IMG/VR virus record: IMGVR_UViG_3300042346_000744
Location: 1-40,646 of that record
Source: a virus
Lineage: Duplodnaviria > Caudoviricetes
Length of the DNA: 40,646 nucleotides
Reading direction: 5' to 3' (one strand)
Shown here in pieces: positions 4,676 through 38,540 of the stretch. A model generated the notes under the pieces. It was not told the DNA's origin. It ran no database searches and saw nothing but the letters and a program-made list of their open reading frames with translations. Each line of letters opens with the position of its first letter. Positions within the stretch are counted from its first letter, which is position 1. A program made the translations under genes and the position numbers.

Positions 4676-4984
4676 ATGCCGCAAATAGTAGATCCAACGC
4701 TATGGGCCAATTCGGGCGGGCTGATTGGGTTGATCATCTTCGCCCTGTTTTTTGTCCTGTATGCGTTTTCTAAAACCCTTTCAAATATCCTGGACAAAAA
4801 TCGTGAGGATATCAACCGAATTCTGGATCTTCATGCTAAAGAGCGTGAGGAGTGGGGGCGGATTGTCGATAGTCGGCAGTCTGAAACCAATCTAGCCATC
4901 AAAGCCATGGCGACAGCACTAAACAAAATTGCAATGCGTCATCGATTTGAAGATGACTCTCATGATAAGGGGTTAGAGTTATGA
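4676..4984 (+). CDS. Single-TM membrane protein with helical tail (holin/anti-holin candidate)
   Basis: AGGAGG RBS; hydrophobic GGLIGLIIFALFFVLYAF segment followed by a charged helix. Confidence 0.55.
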   Translation: MPQIVDPTLWANSGGLIGLIIFALFFVLYAFSKTLSNILDKNREDINRILDLHAKEREEWGRIVDSRQSETNLAIKAMATALNKIAMRHRFEDDSHDKGLEL

Positions 4985-6414
4985 GTGGGTTTAAAGCGGG
5001 GAATTATCCTAATTTGTATGATGTAGCCACAGGTAAATTAGTCGGTTATATATCGCCATATGGCAAAGAACACTATGATTTTAATGATATTGAATCAAAA
5101 ATAAACATAAAAAAAGCCAAAGCAACCATTATTGACGCATTTTCAACGCTCAATTTATCTACAAATCAATATAACAATTCTACCAATGCCCAGCTTGTGC
5201 CAACGTACAACGGAACGCCTACAGTTTTATCAGGGCAAGGCCCAAACGGAGAGGACGTTTTACGATTTAATTTAGGCACAGCAGCAGGCGCAAGCGGTCG
5301 AGTTGGCGCAACGATTGGCGCGGTATCGCCTGCAAATTTGGGTTATAGCTCTGGCGGATTAGTTGGCACGACTGGATTATTTGGTTTTTGGGTGCGGTTC
5401 AATTTAGACGGTACTGATTCGCTTGACGATACCAGCGCTAACAAAATTACACCGATTAACTATGTTTATGCCAATCCTGATTTGGTTGCAAACTACGCAC
5501 AGTCGGCAAGCTTTAACAACAAGTCAAGTAACGAAATGTCGCCGGTTATATCTGGCGAGTGGTATTTTTGGCGGTTTTACAATAATGATAGGGCGGGAAG
5601 TCCTGCTAATACATTAGCAATTGATAAACTGCTACACGCATTCCAACCAGCACAAGCTAATGCTGGTCGAACAACAACAATAGATATTGGCCCTGCTTAT
5701 TTCAACATTGAGCAATCGCCATCTTTCCAATTCAGTTTTGATAATTTAGATGCCAGCATTTACGCCGCATATCAATATTTAAAATCGAAAGGTATAACGG
5801 GAACACTATACACAGACCCGAGAGGGCACGACGGTGGCACGCATTTAACCGTCGCCCAGGTGGATGAGATGTATCGCAATGGTTGGACTATTGGCCTGCA
5901 CGGCAACACAGGCACTACTGCCGATGTAACTCACGGTTTTTACGGTCAAACGACTGAATTTTTAAATGCCGATGTGCTTCCTTGCCTGGAGCTGTTAAAA
6001 GCGCGGTATGGAGATGGTTGGAAGCATTTAGCTTGGCCGCTTGGGAAAATGGATGAAAATGCTATTCGTTACATGCGTAATCTTGGCGTTTTAACTGCTC
6101 GCGGGACTGGTTCCCCGACTCGATCAGGATTGCCGCTATGTATCGATGATTGTTACAACATTTTCGCGGCGGGATGGTTTGCCAACACATCCACAGCAAC
6201 AGTTAGTTGGGCGCAAGCAAAAGCCGTGATTGATGCCACTATTGCAAATAAAACACATACCCATATTTGGGGGCATTTTTACAACGGCACAAACATCACT
6301 ATCTTAAAACAAGCGGTTGATTACATCTTAGACAAGCAGGCTCAAGGCTTATGCGAAATAATAGCTAATGCCGAGGATGCTTATAATCGCTATATTTTGC
6401 CGTCAAAGTTTTGA
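4981..6414 (+). CDS. Polysaccharide deacetylase (CE4/NodB-like) domain protein, possibly virion-associated
   Basis: C-terminal FSFDN, GITGTLY, GWTIGLHG and HLAWPLG motifs; beta-rich N-terminal half. Confidence 0.7.
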   Translation: MSGFKAGNYPNLYDVATGKLVGYISPYGKEHYDFNDIESKINIKKAKATIIDAFSTLNLSTNQYNNSTNAQLVPTYNGTPTVLSGQGPNGEDVLRFNLGTAAGASGRVGATIGAVSPANLGYSSGGLVGTTGLFGFWVRFNLDGTDSLDDTSANKITPINYVYANPDLVANYAQSASFNNKSSNEMSPVISGEWYFWRFYNNDRAGSPANTLAIDKLLHAFQPAQANAGRTTTIDIGPAYFNIEQSPSFQFSFDNLDASIYAAYQYLKSKGITGTLYTDPRGHDGGTHLTVAQVDEMYRNGWTIGLHGNTGTTADVTHGFYGQTTEFLNADVLPCLELLKARYGDGWKHLAWPLGKMDENAIRYMRNLGVLTARGTGSPTRSGLPLCIDDCYNIFAAGWFANTSTATVSWAQAKAVIDATIANKTHTHIWGHFYNGTNITILKQAVDYILDKQAQGLCEIIANAEDAYNRYILPSKF

Positions 6415-6833: not shown

Positions 6834-7441
6834 TGGCGACTTCTGCTGTTGATATTTGCAATTTGGCCTTGGCGCATTTAGGCGACTCGGCCAACATTTC
6901 CAGCATTTCACCACCTGACAACTCGGTACAAGCCAATTACTGCAGCTTGTTTTATCCGTTAGCGTTGGCGGCGGCTTTGGATGAGCATACTTGGCGGTTT
7001 GCGACTCGCCGCGTTACGCTGGCCACTCGCACCAATGATGCGAGTGATGAATGGGATTATTGTTATGTGGTGCCTTCTGATCTGGTTTCGATTGTAGAGT
7101 TAAAAAGCGCGGGCGTTGATCAGCAATTGATTCAATACAGTCAGGAAATTGCGTCGGATAATGCCCAAGTGCTGTACTGCAATGTTACGCCTGCAGTCCT
7201 GTATTACGTATCATCGTCTGTTTTGAGCCTGCATTTTACCCCGGCTTTTGTGCAGTATCTGGCCGCTTTACTGGCCAGTCATCTGGCTGGGCCGATGCTG
7301 AAAGGGGATGTTGGGGTGAATGCCAGCAATAAGCTGTTAGCGCTGGCCATGCAACTGAAAGAACGGGCGATTGAGCGGGATGGGCAAAGCGTGCGCGTGG
7401 TGGTTGATCATATTCCGGCAACGCATGCCGCGCGATTGTAA
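6833..7441 (+). CDS. Tail adaptor / tubular protein A (T7 gp11-like)
   Basis: VDICNLALAHLG and HTWRFATRR motifs; about 200 aa; directly before the nozzle gene. Confidence 0.85.
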   Translation: MATSAVDICNLALAHLGDSANISSISPPDNSVQANYCSLFYPLALAAALDEHTWRFATRRVTLATRTNDASDEWDYCYVVPSDLVSIVELKSAGVDQQLIQYSQEIASDNAQVLYCNVTPAVLYYVSSSVLSLHFTPAFVQYLAALLASHLAGPMLKGDVGVNASNKLLALAMQLKERAIERDGQSVRVVVDHIPATHAARL

Positions 7442-9501
7442 TGCCTAACGTCCGTGTTTTAAGACAGTCTTTTTCAGGCGGCGAATTGTCGCCGCGTTTG
7501 TTCGGTCGGCTGGATTTTGCCAGCTTTCAATCAGGTTTGGAAACCTGCAAAAACTTTATCGCCTTGCCGCACGGTAGCGCAATGAATCGGCCTGGGTTGC
7601 GGTTTGTGAATGAAACTAAAACATCAGAATACAAAACCCGCTTGATTCCGTTTACCTTTAGCACTACGCAAGCTTTTGCGATTGAAATGGGGCGGTTTTA
7701 CTTCCGGTTTCATGCCCTGGGCGGGACGTTGAATCTGTTACCGCTGAGTTCTGATGCTTATCAAGTCGTCACACCCTACACTGAAGATGAATTGTTTGAT
7801 GTACATTTTGTACAGTCTGGCGATGTCATCACACTGACACACCCTAATCATCCACCCAAAGAGTTAAGGCGCTTAGGCAATACGAATTGGACACTTACCA
7901 ATATCGCGTTTTCGCCCACGTCTACAGCCCCGGCCAGCTGTACGGTAACAGCCACTTCTCCCGGTGGTGGGCCAAACAAAGATTACACGTATAAAATCAC
8001 GGCGCTGAATGACCGGGGGCTTGAAGAGTCTTTGGCTTCCCCAGTATCCAACACCGTCAGCAATAACCTGACATTAACCGGCAATTACAATACTGTGACT
8101 TGGCCCGCTGTAACCGGCGCCACTATGTATAACGTGTATAAGTCGGCCAGTGGGGCGTATGGCTTTATCGGGCAAACCGCGGCTTTAACGTTGGTCGATG
8201 ACAATATCATGGCTGATATGACGCGCACTTTGCCGATTTTAGACAATCCGTTTAACAGTGCTGATCATTATCCCACTGCGGTTGGGTATTACGAGCAACG
8301 GCGGTATTTTGCAGGGACTGAAACCGACCCAATGAACGTTTGGGCGACTCAATCCGGCAGTGAAACCAACTTGGCTTACTCGGTGCCGTCGCAAGATTCG
8401 GATGCTTTGCGGTTTCGAATCATGGCCAACCGCTCTGACATCGTGCGGCATTTGATCAACCTGCAGGATCTGATTGTATTGACGGCGGCGAATGAATGGC
8501 GGGTGGCTTCATCCGGCAATGGACCGTTGACGCCTTCGACTATCAATATCAAGTCACAATCGCAAGTTGGGGCATCCAACGTACAGCCCAAAGTCATTGA
8601 CAATTACTTGCTGTACGAAGCCGCGCAGGGCGGGCATATTCGGGAATTTACCTATGACTGGCAAAGTAACGGCTTCCGTAGTGGCGACATCAGCTTATTA
8701 GCCTCGCATCTGTTTGATGGCTATACGATTAAAGACATGGCTTACAGTCGCGCACCGTGGCAAATTTTGTGGTGTGTTTCGACCTCAGGCAAGCTGCTAG
8801 GCTTGAGTTATGTGCCCGAGCAAAAGATTGCCGCTTGGCATCAACATGAAACCGATGGGCAGTTTGAAAGCTGCTGTACCATCAACGAAAACGGCGCGGA
8901 TGTGCTGTATGTGATCGTTAAGCGCACGATTGACGGGGTACAAAAGCGCTATGTGGAGTATCTGGATTTGCGGGATGCTGCCACCTTGGCCGATAGCTTT
9001 TTTGTGGATTGCGGTTTGACTTATAGCGGTACCGCGACCACTACCATCAGCGGACTGGACCACTTGGAAGGTAAAACCGTGTCTGTGCTGGGTGATGGGG
9101 CTGTTTTATCGCAAAAAACAGTGGTAGCCGGTGAAATTACTTTAGAGGTTGCAGTTAGCAAGGCCCAAGTGGGTTTGCCGATTACGGCGGATTTAAAAAC
9201 ATTGCCGACGTATTTTCAGGATGAAACCTTAGGGCAAAGCCGCATTAAAAACGTCAATAAGGTTTGGGTAAGGATTGCCGAGTCTGGGCCGTTTAGTGCA
9301 GGACCGGATGAAAGCCACTTAACCCCGATTAAATTGCGCACGTTTGAAACCTACGGATCACCCATCGAGTTAAAAACAGGCGAGTTTGATTTAGTGGTGC
9401 AATCCAATTGGAATCAATCCGGTCAGGTGCTGATTCGTCAAGATGATCCATTACCGCTTGAAGTGGTGTATGTGGCGGCTGAGGTGGCTATCGGTGGATA
9501 G
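7441..9501 (+). CDS. Tail nozzle / tubular protein B (T7 gp12-like)
   Basis: SFSGGELSPRLFGR N-terminus, RLIPFTFS, YYEQRRYFAG and AWHQHETDG motifs. Confidence 0.88.
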   Translation: MPNVRVLRQSFSGGELSPRLFGRLDFASFQSGLETCKNFIALPHGSAMNRPGLRFVNETKTSEYKTRLIPFTFSTTQAFAIEMGRFYFRFHALGGTLNLLPLSSDAYQVVTPYTEDELFDVHFVQSGDVITLTHPNHPPKELRRLGNTNWTLTNIAFSPTSTAPASCTVTATSPGGGPNKDYTYKITALNDRGLEESLASPVSNTVSNNLTLTGNYNTVTWPAVTGATMYNVYKSASGAYGFIGQTAALTLVDDNIMADMTRTLPILDNPFNSADHYPTAVGYYEQRRYFAGTETDPMNVWATQSGSETNLAYSVPSQDSDALRFRIMANRSDIVRHLINLQDLIVLTAANEWRVASSGNGPLTPSTINIKSQSQVGASNVQPKVIDNYLLYEAAQGGHIREFTYDWQSNGFRSGDISLLASHLFDGYTIKDMAYSRAPWQILWCVSTSGKLLGLSYVPEQKIAAWHQHETDGQFESCCTINENGADVLYVIVKRTIDGVQKRYVEYLDLRDAATLADSFFVDCGLTYSGTATTTISGLDHLEGKTVSVLGDGAVLSQKTVVAGEITLEVAVSKAQVGLPITADLKTLPTYFQDETLGQSRIKNVNKVWVRIAESGPFSAGPDESHLTPIKLRTFETYGSPIELKTGEFDLVVQSNWNQSGQVLIRQDDPLPLEVVYVAAEVAIGG

Positions 9502-9994
9502 ACGCCTTAAAGAGCGCTTGACGTTACGCACTCCCACCCAAGCCGACGCGGATTATCTAGCTAAGCATTTGCGGCAAGCGGATGTTGATGAATTGGCCGT
9601 TACGGGCTATCCATCGGCAGCTCAAGCGGTGCAATGGGCATTTGAACGCACTTTGCCAGAGCTGCAAACGGTGGTTGAGTGGGATGGCGAAATGCTGATC
9701 ATGACCGGCTGCGCAGCGGATACGCTGCTGTCTAATGTTGGGGTGCCGTGGTTATTGGGTACCGAAGCCATGATAAAGCATATGAAAGCCATCACCATTG
9801 GCGCACACCAAGCCATTGCCATTTTTTTAACCCACTGGCCGATTCTGCGCAATGTCGTAGATGCCCGCAACACGGCAACTATACGCTGGGTGCAATCCTT
9901 GGGGTTTGATTTAACGCCTGTGCCTGAATGGGTACCGGGCTTTCCTGTCTATCAGTTTGAAAAGAGGCGGAATGAATACGTTAGAGAAGTTTGA
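9494..9994 (+). CDS. GNAT-like internal virion assembly protein (T7 gp13-like)
   Basis: LRQADVDEL, PWLLGT and NVVDARNTATIRWVQSLGF motifs. Probable GTG start at 9494 behind GAGG. Confidence 0.75.
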   Translation: MDRRLKERLTLRTPTQADADYLAKHLRQADVDELAVTGYPSAAQAVQWAFERTLPELQTVVEWDGEMLIMTGCAADTLLSNVGVPWLLGTEAMIKHMKAITIGAHQAIAIFLTHWPILRNVVDARNTATIRWVQSLGFDLTPVPEWVPGFPVYQFEKRRNEYVREV

Positions 9995-10799
9995 GGCGTT
10001 GAATTTTCAACATGCCATTTTAGCGATTGAAGAGCGCATGAAGACTATGCCGCCGTTAGAATTTAAAGTGGTGCATCATTTTGCCAATGGTATTTATGCC
10101 CGTGAGTTGCACATCCCAGCAGGCAGCGCCTTAACCGGCAAGATCCACAAAACCGAACACCTATGCACGGTGGCCAAAGGTGACATTAAAGTGATGGATC
10201 ATAATGGATATAAACACCTGAAAGCCGGGGATACTTTTGTCTCTAAGCCTGGTGTTAAGCGCTTAGGGTTAGCGATTGAAGATACCATTTTTGTGACCTA
10301 TCACCCCGCAACGACGCAAAACGTGGACGAATTATTGTCGTTATTAGTGTGTGATACGTTTGAAGAATATCACCGTCATTACGTTGAAAACGTATCCCGT
10401 GAACAAGATCGGCTGGATTACCAAGCCTTTTTAACCGAATGGCATTTTACTGAAGAGCAAGTACAGGCCATGGTGCAAAACACTGATGACTTGATTGATT
10501 TGCCGGATTTTTATGCGCATTTATCGCTGAAAGATTCGGCTATTGCGGGGCAAGGCTTGTTTTCCGATATCGATATTCCTGCCGACAAGGTGATTGCTCC
10601 GGCCAGAGTTGCGGGAAAGCGAACACCTGCAGGGCGTTATGTGAATCATTCATCGGTACCTAATTGCATCATGTGGGCGGACAAAAGCGCCGATATTTGG
10701 TTGATCAGTTTATATAACATCAAGCCGGGGGATGAATTAACCGTGGATTATCGGCAGGCGGGGCAGGTCAACATTGAATCATTGAGGTTAGCGGCATGA
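9972..10799 (+). CDS. Cupin plus SET-domain (putative lysine methyltransferase) fusion
   Basis: N-terminal HHFANGIYARELHIPAG...GKIHKTEH cupin. C-terminal SAIAGQGLF, RYVNHSSVPNC and IKPGDELTVDY SET motifs. Start 9972 behind GAGG. Confidence 0.82.
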   Translation: MNTLEKFEALNFQHAILAIEERMKTMPPLEFKVVHHFANGIYARELHIPAGSALTGKIHKTEHLCTVAKGDIKVMDHNGYKHLKAGDTFVSKPGVKRLGLAIEDTIFVTYHPATTQNVDELLSLLVCDTFEEYHRHYVENVSREQDRLDYQAFLTEWHFTEEQVQAMVQNTDDLIDLPDFYAHLSLKDSAIAGQGLFSDIDIPADKVIAPARVAGKRTPAGRYVNHSSVPNCIMWADKSADIWLISLYNIKPGDELTVDYRQAGQVNIESLRLAA

Positions 10800-25877: not shown

Positions 25878-26067
25878 CGGTACGCCTAAAAATTTAGGCG
25901 GATTTTAGGCGTACCGATAAGACAAAATCAAGCCAAATTATGCAAAACAAAACAACGATAAACCAAGACACTGCGCCACATAGGTTTTGTGTTGCGCCCA
26001 TGCTGGATTGGACAGATTAAGCTGTTATAGCTTGGTTTTTATGGGGGTTGGCGGATTTTAGGCGTAC
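25878..26067. repeat. attP region with arm-type repeats
   Basis: 14-bp inverted repeat CGGTACGCCTAAAA (25878-25891 / 25903-25916). 18-bp direct repeat GGCGGATTTTAGGCGTAC (25897-25914, 26050-26067) brackets the dusA fragment. Confidence 0.8.
25940..26020 (+). pseudogene. dusA: Replacement 5' end of dusA containing the attP core (26 aa)
   Basis: Translates to MQNKTTINQDTAPHRFCVAPMLDWTD*, matching the conserved DusA N-terminal RF.VAPMLDWTD motif. Confidence 0.88.
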
Positions 26068-37776: not shown

Positions 37777-38325
37777 ATGCCTAACCCTGAATTGATTTCA
37801 TTACTGACGGCTGGATCTGCGTTGTTTAAAGACGAGATAAGGCATCAGCCGAATAACGGTGTGGTGTTGTCGCGTTGTGAGCTGGCTGGGTATTTATCCG
37901 GCTTGACGCATGGGGCTACGCTGATGGCCTATGCTAAGTGGGGAAACGATGAACAGGCTATGCGGCATCTGATTGCCTGGGTGCGTGTCATAGCGGCAGG
38001 CATGGCCGTTGAGCAGGGCTGGCCGGTTGAGCGGGGTAAGCCTGTGATTTGCAACCTGGCCGCGATTGCGGCTTATGAAGTGGTCATGCCCATGGTGCAT
38101 GATGTTTGTGAGGGGCGTGGTCAGGTTGGGTTTAAAACCTGTAACGGTTGCGGTGGTACCGGCAGGAAAGCGTTATCGAGTCGGCAGGTTCAAGAGGCGG
38201 TTGGGATTGAGCGTAATCTTTGGCGTCGGCAGTGGGAAGGCCGCTATCGGCAGATTGTTAGGGCGGTGGTTGAGTTGGATGCTGAGGTGCAGCGGGGTAA
38301 TGGGGGTTTTAAGGCGGTTGGATAA
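37777..38325 (+). CDS. Late antiterminator Q-like protein
   Basis: HDVCEGRG...CNGCGGTG zinc finger; upstream of a promoter-terminator pair and terS. Confidence 0.72.
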   Translation: MPNPELISLLTAGSALFKDEIRHQPNNGVVLSRCELAGYLSGLTHGATLMAYAKWGNDEQAMRHLIAWVRVIAAGMAVEQGWPVERGKPVICNLAAIAAYEVVMPMVHDVCEGRGQVGFKTCNGCGGTGRKALSSRQVQEAVGIERNLWRRQWEGRYRQIVRAVVELDAEVQRGNGGFKAVG

Positions 38326-38342
38326 TATTTGTTTGATCTGGA

Positions 38343-38415
38343 GTCGTGACGGCGAATACAAATATAAAAACACATTTCTAAGCTGCCTGTGCGGCGGCAA
38401 ATCTGCCGTCACGAC
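38343..38415 (-). ncRNA. Predicted ~73-nt sRNA containing the solitary repeat (Racr-like)
   Basis: 11-bp terminal inverted repeat (38343-38353 / 38405-38415). Extended -10 TGcTATACT at 38430-38422 puts +1 at about 38415. Confidence 0.65.
38375..38402 (-). CRISPR. Solitary type I-F CRISPR repeat (no array, no cas genes)
   Basis: Minus strand ATTTGCCGCCGCACAGGCAGCTTAGAAA versus the canonical I-F repeat GTTCACTGCCGCACAGGCAGCTTAGAAA: 24 of 28 identical, last 21 nt exact. Confidence 0.85.
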
Positions 38416-38462
38416 GTATTGAGTATAGCAAATATTTTATAGGTTATTTATAAAGTCAACAT

Positions 38463-38491
38463 TTGACATTGACCCAAAAACCGGTTATAAA
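38463..38491 (+). promoter_or_regulatory. Late promoter pR'
   Basis: TTGACA, 17 bp, TATAAA, downstream of Q. Confidence 0.78.
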
Positions 38492-38504
38492 TTCCCAAAA
38501 TAGC

Positions 38505-38540
38505 AAAAGCCTGCCCGGAAACGGAGCGGGCTTTTTTTTT
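38505..38540 (+). terminator. tR'-like intrinsic terminator
   Basis: GCCTGC-CCG-GAAA-CGG-A-GCGGGC stem with a GNRA loop, followed by T9. Confidence 0.82.

Follow-up and report, generated by a model that had tools for sequence, protein, structure and literature searches.

The genome of a temperate phage carries a single type I-F CRISPR repeat that, together with the 21 guide-like nucleotides following it, is bracketed by a perfect 11-bp inverted repeat (38343–38353/38405–38415). Both this clamp and the guide-like stretch inside it had been overlooked in the preliminary description of this DNA. From the observed anatomy, conservation, look-alikes and recurrence of the clamp, and from the predicted folding, we infer the following chain: the phage RNA is likely transcribed, its ends would be clamped, and host Cas6f would cut it to leave a 21-nt guide behind a handle of 8 nt, which would be loaded and would likely steer a short Csy complex to a host cas or toxin promoter and repress it. 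We give this chain, taken whole, about as much credence as doubt.

What kind of virus carries this unit? The stretch of DNA analysed here (the window, 40,646 nt) covers an entire virus record and ends in direct repeats of 127 nt. Its genes are those of a temperate podovirus (an integrase, a repressor pair, a primase-helicase, a Q-like gene and terminases), and its portal-like protein shares 54.5% identity with the counterpart in Bordetella phage BPP-1. A Methylococcales methanotroph is the likely host, because the best named relatives of the integrase are those of Methylomonas sp. 11b (69%) and Methylobacter (66% and 61%); in the class around G001 integrase matches were weak only. A short frame beside the integrase (25985–26017, plus strand) we take to be the start of dusA, which suggests an attP for integration into that gene. 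Between 37340 and 37660, 3′ of the primase-helicase gene, short direct and inverted repeats cluster round an AT-rich stretch that is likely the replication origin. The virion module includes genes for a cupin plus SET domain and for a polysaccharide deacetylase domain (9957–10799 and 4981–6414, respectively). At least half of the window is present in three lake-water metagenome runs, one of which may be its source; no RNA dataset is among the runs listed as containing the stretch. A relative of Csy1 was sought in IMG/VR and none was found.

The repeat-like unit is 28 nt long and occupies 38375–38402 on the minus strand, in one copy. A search for its last 21 nt that allowed up to three mismatches gave one site in the window and none in 100 shuffles. 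The same 21 nt terminate the repeats of I-F arrays in viral loci, which bears out their earlier equation with the canonical I-F repeat. Of the full 28 nt, 26 are identical to the terminal repeat of the I-F array of Methylobacter sp. YRD-M1. Near-identical repeats belong to I-F systems of Methylococcales, and the phage has conserved its unit (see below), in keeping with the proposal that the RNA is aimed at a host I-F system. We found no second repeat in the window and no Rfam match for the unit. Of 48 listed ORFs, 33 were compared with PHROGs or Pfam and gave no cas or Acr family, the other 15 lying in the virion module; the repeat had been described as solitary and unaccompanied by cas genes, and within this scope it is.

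The 8-nt 5′ handle of the predicted guide is intact (38375–38382, minus strand), as first noted, and the anatomy of the repeat places the predicted Cas6f cut between 38383 and 38382 on the same strand. Csy4 recognizes A19 and G20 of the 3′ strand of the stem, and the phage repeat has both. As a predicted Cas6f substrate the repeat keeps the C6–G20 pair, has at position 7 (pair 2) the C–A mismatch that had been raised as a caveat, and forms its hairpin with a probability of 0.68–0.78. An 86-nt lake contig (run X2, its joint also in X3; depth about 4) contains a phage-identical repeat, a 32-nt spacer and another repeat. The C–A variant therefore occurs in an array-like unit, which eases the worry about the mismatch. 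As separate observations, the I-F array repeats of a Methylomonas koyamae plasmid (L069, 11397–12200) have a C at position 7 paired to G19, and the phage repeat combines a 5′ half as in these repeats with the common 3′ half. Several 32-nt spacers of the lake I-F arrays in X1–X3 are near-palindromic and mutually similar.

Does the unit have its own promoter, as was originally suggested? An extended −10 motif (TGn plus hexamer) lies at 38422–38430 on the minus strand, is unchanged in a relative (L043), and would set the start of the RNA at about 38415. It is a motif with a putative promoter function. The promoter scanner did not list it and reported two sites against 1.5 expected, and a −35-like hexamer nearby is altered in the relative (position 38455).

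From this putative start the RNA would read, along the minus strand, as the 5′ arm of the clamp (38405–38415), a linker of 2 nt (38403–38404), the repeat, a spacer-like stretch of 21 nt between handle and 3′ arm (38354–38374) and the 3′ arm (38343–38353), which occupies the place taken in mini-arrays by the second repeat. The 79-nt RNA is predicted to fold with −32.7 kcal/mol (z −4.95), and none of 200 shuffles is equally stable. In the predicted structure the arms pair with a probability of 1.0, the canonical repeat hairpin with merely 0.68. A further predicted hairpin joins handle and seed to the tail of the spacer itself, at −4.0 kcal/mol and with probabilities reaching 0.99. The weak stem and this handle–spacer hairpin, as modelled, count against efficient loading. 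The two pieces are predicted to remain paired after the Cas6f cut. No intrinsic terminator was found downstream of the clamp; the run-on (38240–38342, minus strand), antisense to the end of Q, is C-rich and G-poor (42 C and 11 G in 103 nt) and may possibly be a Rho loading site. A candidate co-transcriptional lock, in which the hairpin has a probability of 0.01–0.02 before the 3′ arm is made and 0.68 after, was rejected and is not counted: 20–25% of shuffled leaders equal it, and two other clamped units (L038 and L105) are without it.

How does the unit compare with the solitary repeats described as RNA anti-CRISPRs? In common with RacrIF1 and other solitary repeat units it is one intergenic I-F repeat of a temperate phage, with a promoter motif, C6–G20 and no cas genes. 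RacrIF1 inhibits via a product of 70–76 nt upstream of the cut, with the handle unneeded and C6–G20 needed (PMC10651486). The phage leader, by contrast, is 13 nt long and paired, and the piece upstream of the cut is predicted to measure 33 nt, 11 of them paired, values that rest on the putative start. The unit is a solitary repeat unit in the loose definition, one intergenic repeat on a mobile element without cas genes or more repeats (33 of 48 ORFs scanned), and does not have the anatomy of RacrIF1. In nine supplements of PMC10651486, term searches found neither the phage repeat nor Methylococcales.

Could the RNA nonetheless be a sequence-independent decoy that ties up Cas6f and other Csy subunits, its 21 nt targetless and its clamp merely stabilising? 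A solitary repeat with a promoter motif and an intact C6–G20 pair would suit such a role, no target was found in three I-F loci or in the phage's own genome, and non-targeting crRNAs also reduced immunity, while Cracrs titrate too (PMC10651486; 10.1101/2024.10.29.618823). We think it unlikely. The short, paired leader differs from the long upstream product of RacrIF1; in RacrIF1 the stem is intact and the handle altered (primer Prs220), in the phage unit the stem is weakened and the handle perfect; and the 20 nt downstream are conserved and common to look-alikes. The RacrIF1-type decoy first proposed thus fits less well. Since the handle is intact, the stem weakened and the leader short and paired, a guide-type, Cracr-like mimic appears to fit better. 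The decoy is in part nested within the guide reading because titration of Cas proteins would occur under either.

What, then, do the 21 nt resemble? In four of the five lake runs examined (X1–X4; none in X5), contigs match the phage at 38355–38394/5 only, a segment made up of the tail of the repeat and the first 20 nt of the spacer-like stretch, and have unrelated flanks. They are of two kinds, one with 4 differences in 40 positions (X2, X3 and X4) and one with 6 in 41 (X1, X2 and X4). If all these differences are placed within the 20 downstream nt, the worst case, identity there is 16/20 and 14/20; the maximum among 290 viral I-F repeats is 12/20. In one contig of each kind a second repeat can be made out by eye in the loose end, 25–26 nt past the handle. 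Host CreR/CreA spacers measure 23–27 nt and viral Cracr spacers 17–21 nt (10.1101/2024.10.29.618823), and in length the look-alikes' spacers are like those of host CreR/CreA. Judged by sequence, this 25–26-nt layout looks like that of regulatory mini-arrays, and the phage's 21 nt look like a regulatory spacer. The earlier alternative of a guide gains from these look-alikes and their common 20 nt; its target was not found in the three I-F loci or the phage genome.

An unannotated mini-array of two repeats lies between cas3f and csy1 on plasmid NZ_CP091425.1 of Methylobacter sp. YRD-M1 (L068, 10185–10320, minus strand, from 10257 downward). Its first repeat is degenerate with the handle intact, its spacer is 19 nt long, and this spacer has a CC-flanked seed run of 13 positions upstream of csy1, the top run in 30 kb, the next best being 7. 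The mini-array is a candidate CreR, self-repressing, in a methanotroph, so that a self-repressing circuit would exist in the likely host order. According to PMC10120712, I-F1 CreR mini-arrays sit between cas3 and cas8f/csy1, and phage copies of them have shortened spacers. The phage unit is like these mini-arrays, the Methylobacter example included, in having a short AT-rich spacer after a degenerate first repeat; unlike them and their phage copies, which have two repeats, it has one repeat and a clamp.

The csy1 site of YRD-M1 is not the phage's target, because the two spacers are identical at 9 of 20 positions and the seed differs. For the phage spacer, no CC-flanked seed run of more than 6 positions was found in three plasmid-borne Methylococcales I-F loci (L068, L069 and L075), and the best CC-flanked run in the phage genome itself is 6. 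Two plasmids searched with the target pattern gave 0 exact and 5 one-mismatch matches, compared with 2 for the control. Relaxed patterns returned from IMG/VR only known copies and unrelated units, and no GenBank phage matched the unit. Comparison of 219 spacers (51 of them from L068/L069) with the window and seven related loci gave just chance matches of 13–17 nt.

The guide might instead be directed against a competing phage, a plasmid or a non-cas host gene, like inter-virus mini-arrays. Viral mini-array spacers target mostly other viruses (PMC10120712), the look-alikes could belong to other phages, and the loop of L038, discussed below, is near the canonical spacer length. We hold this to be improbable: 21 nt are too few compared with the usual 32-nt cutting guide, their composition is AT-rich and promoter-like, and the pattern scans of IMG/VR, which used patterns of the unit rather than the bare target, gave neither look-alike nor target.

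Is the unit maintained? Arm to arm it shows 0 differences in 73 positions from L043, compared with 34 in 549 for the Q gene and 7 in 112 for the flanks (2/17, 3/45 and 2/50), where the nearest differences fall 1 and 3 nt beyond the arms. The chance of zero differences in 73 nt is P ~0.01. L043 and L044 were counted once because they are identical over 3000 nt, and the arms offer no covariation because just one independent relative carries the unit. The ORFs overlapping the unit are not under coding selection: against L043 the 79-aa antisense ORF across it has 9 non-synonymous changes and 1 synonymous, and the 118-aa plus-strand ORF 15 non-synonymous and 2 synonymous plus a stop, and both were rejected as coding. 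In Q, 29 codon changes are synonymous and 5 non-synonymous.

These figures bear on another account, that of a captured host mini-array, silenced or decaying, whose clamp and handle–spacer hairpin would lock the RNA into little activity. In its favour are the C–A mismatch, a competing slipped stem, the sequestered handle and the lost second repeat; it is hard to square with 0/73 differences from a relative 6% diverged, with an identical copy of the unit in a second lake run, and with the recurrence of a perfect clamp in unrelated viruses. We consider it, too, to have little chance of being right.

The unit lies in a slot bordered on the left by the Q-like antiterminator gene (37777–38325, plus strand; phrog_127, E 2e-6) and on the right, before terS, by a conserved late-promoter-like region with a hairpin (38461–38540, plus strand), whose promoter role is putative. 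Six other relatives are comparable: three have the slot empty (L052, L056 and L057) and three have small unknown ORFs in it (L045 5642–6289, L049 2607–3046 and L050 972–1893). An RHH-like gene follows the slot ORFs in two relatives, with a GG..GAGR motif. In five more distant relatives of Q the packaging modules are different and the slot is empty. The slot thus has the look of an accessory site, although the relatives' slot genes matched no Acr or Aca family; the RHH-like slot genes gave below-cut-off matches only in L049 and none in L055. RHH regulators of acr operons are known, namely Aca14 (10.64898/2026.07.27.740549). One slot ORF is a member of a 98-aa family, 356 proteins strong, in which SRH and VVVHP motifs are conserved; its confident alpha/beta model had no clear structural match. 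For the slot ORF of L050 a likeness to a ring nuclease is unsupported, with no sequence match in Pfam, NCBIfam, PHROG or PDB; its model has a pLDDT of 94.6 and Foldseek returned none at E ≤ 0.001, the best Z being 5.9.

Is the clamp peculiar to this phage? We classed 292 repeats from 168 loci, dropping locus-end repeats and duplicates; one scan covered 121 of about 160 stretches. Among 21 solitary repeats, 6 (the window, its copy, L105, L085, L022 and L039) had leader–tail pairing stronger than in 150 shuffles at p ≤ 0.01, as against 2 of 65 first repeats; L038 had p 0.026. Under a strict rule of at least 10 ungapped pairs, a threshold chosen after the data had been seen, 4 of 20 solitary viral repeats are clamped (3 of 19 excluding the window) and 16 are not. 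The controls gave 2/65, 2/183 and 0/23 for array repeats, 5/380 for cross pairings and 64/6000 for random places. Simple arithmetic puts 3/19 at P ~0.001, a value that includes the weak L104, whose clamp, with 6 Watson–Crick pairs, is probably due to chance.

The clamp of L105 has 14 pairs, with guide and linker of 23+0 nt (21+2 in the window) and a fold z of −7.3; that of L038 has 17 pairs, a loop of 30–34 nt and a fold z of −3.4, and an extended −10 ends 7 nt before its 5′ arm. The loops of L038 and L085 are longer than the window's. L105 and L038 are unrelated in sequence, both favour the repeat-sense strand, and neither record has a Csy1 match (that of L038 is 46% complete). We conclude that the clamp is a recurring RNA feature in a minority of solitary I-F repeats. 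In L105 and L038 no self-target run of more than 8 was found. Other candidates were discarded: a clamp in L025 spotted by eye (z −0.17), that of L039, which is a duplicated palindrome, and that of L022, which is weak. As to setting, the clamped repeat of L105 (350–455, minus strand) lies directly before a 59-aa acidic ORF, that of L038 (1462–1580, plus strand) between tail genes on the opposite strand, and the solitary repeat of L085 (355–490, plus strand) inside a long leader–tail helix. In L085 (G028, about 7400–7455) the 7 nt that directly follow the handle are found again 30 nt upstream, just behind CC, in its own leader, possibly as a self-target or a short duplication.

Least probable of all is an account in which the CRISPR repeat is incidental and the inverted repeat works as DNA, serving as an operator or marking the ends of a small mobile element, or works through the opposite strand, as a stem at the 3′ end of the Q message or as antisense control of Q: the window's strands do fold alike (−32.7 vs −30.8 kcal/mol) because its arms are all Watson–Crick, and the minus transcript continues antisense into Q, but in L105, L038 and L085 the repeat-sense strand is better by 6–11 kcal/mol, with G–U pairs in the arms, no target-site duplication was seen, and the empty-slot relatives are without such a stem.

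How close does the unit come to a type I-F Cracr? It is viral, lies outside cas loci and joins an intact-handle repeat to a spacer-like stretch of 21 nt, within the viral range of 17–21 nt. It differs in having neither a second repeat to close the spacer, the 3′ arm standing in its place, nor an intrinsic terminator; instead the 11-bp clamp joins leader and tail. Unlike Cracrs, it has no acrIF24 or other Acr family found beside it, and its target was not found. It would work like a Cracr, but we do not file it as one because the second repeat is absent and no target is shown. Type I-F Cracrs match a host CreR/CreA spacer at 9 or more PAM-proximal positions and have a CC-flanked target in a cas or creT promoter; for the phage spacer the values are at least 16/20 and 14/20 against the lake look-alikes and 9/20, with a different seed, against the YRD-M1 spacer. 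The main text of 10.1101/2024.10.29.618823 does not mention Methylococcales. In our own collection, viral I-F mini-arrays with short spacers of 8–22 nt (L017, L018, L021, L034, L040, L042 and others) are likely Cracr-type.

Further parallels come from PMC13187072, which states that assembly in class 1 systems is seeded by the 5′ end of the crRNA and can do without its 3′ end. The phage unit is like the extraneous crRNAs described there, in that one repeat can produce a guide from outside sequence; it is unlike the leader–repeat hairpins of that account, in which the leader blocks processing, as the phage leader pairs past the guide and the repeat hairpin is predicted to be free. A clamped or permuted single-repeat crRNA mimic was not found in the literature searched; Cracr tables S1–S3 and the large tables of PMC10120712 may list the unit or the host spacer.

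How might the guide-type mimic work? Transcription would begin at the 5′ arm and the clamp would close. Host Cas6f would cleave at 38383/38382, freeing the 8-nt handle and the 21-nt guide. Cas8f/Cas5f would bind the handle, and about four Cas7f would cover the 21 nt, as for CracrIF2 (10.1101/2024.10.29.618823). The short Csy complex would then bind a CC-flanked host cas or toxin promoter without cutting and so repress it. Meanwhile the paired pieces would shield the 3′ end of the guide and may keep a Cas6f-bound hairpin where a normal crRNA has one, so that one repeat could supply both crRNA ends. Followed along the guide, the order would be 5′ to 3′ to the base of the helix, a switch of strand, 7 nt and the hairpin, which is the order of a crRNA, permuted.

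This leads to a bolder and tentative proposal, which we regard as doubtful though worth stating. The unit may be a natural circularly permuted crRNA, in which a single repeat gives both the 5′ handle and, via the leader–trailer helix, a Cas6f-capped 3′ hairpin. Unrelated phages (those of the window, L105 and L038) would have reached this build independently, so that a share of the solitary repeats filed as decoys would be complete one-repeat guides.

About 2,100 viral solitary repeats have been catalogued as candidate decoys (PMC10651486), and detection of guide-type mimics relies on a second repeat or on a host spacer already known. Should a clamp be able to stand in for the second repeat, some of the catalogued decoys would be sequence-specific repressors overlooked by present searches, and a simple search rule would follow: one arm before the repeat and one arm 20–35 nt after the handle. 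Type I-F tools would also gain a guide design with one repeat, without recombination between repeats. For the lake methanotrophs, the unit points to RNA-guided regulation of cas genes and to its subversion by phage, of which the literature searched held no description.
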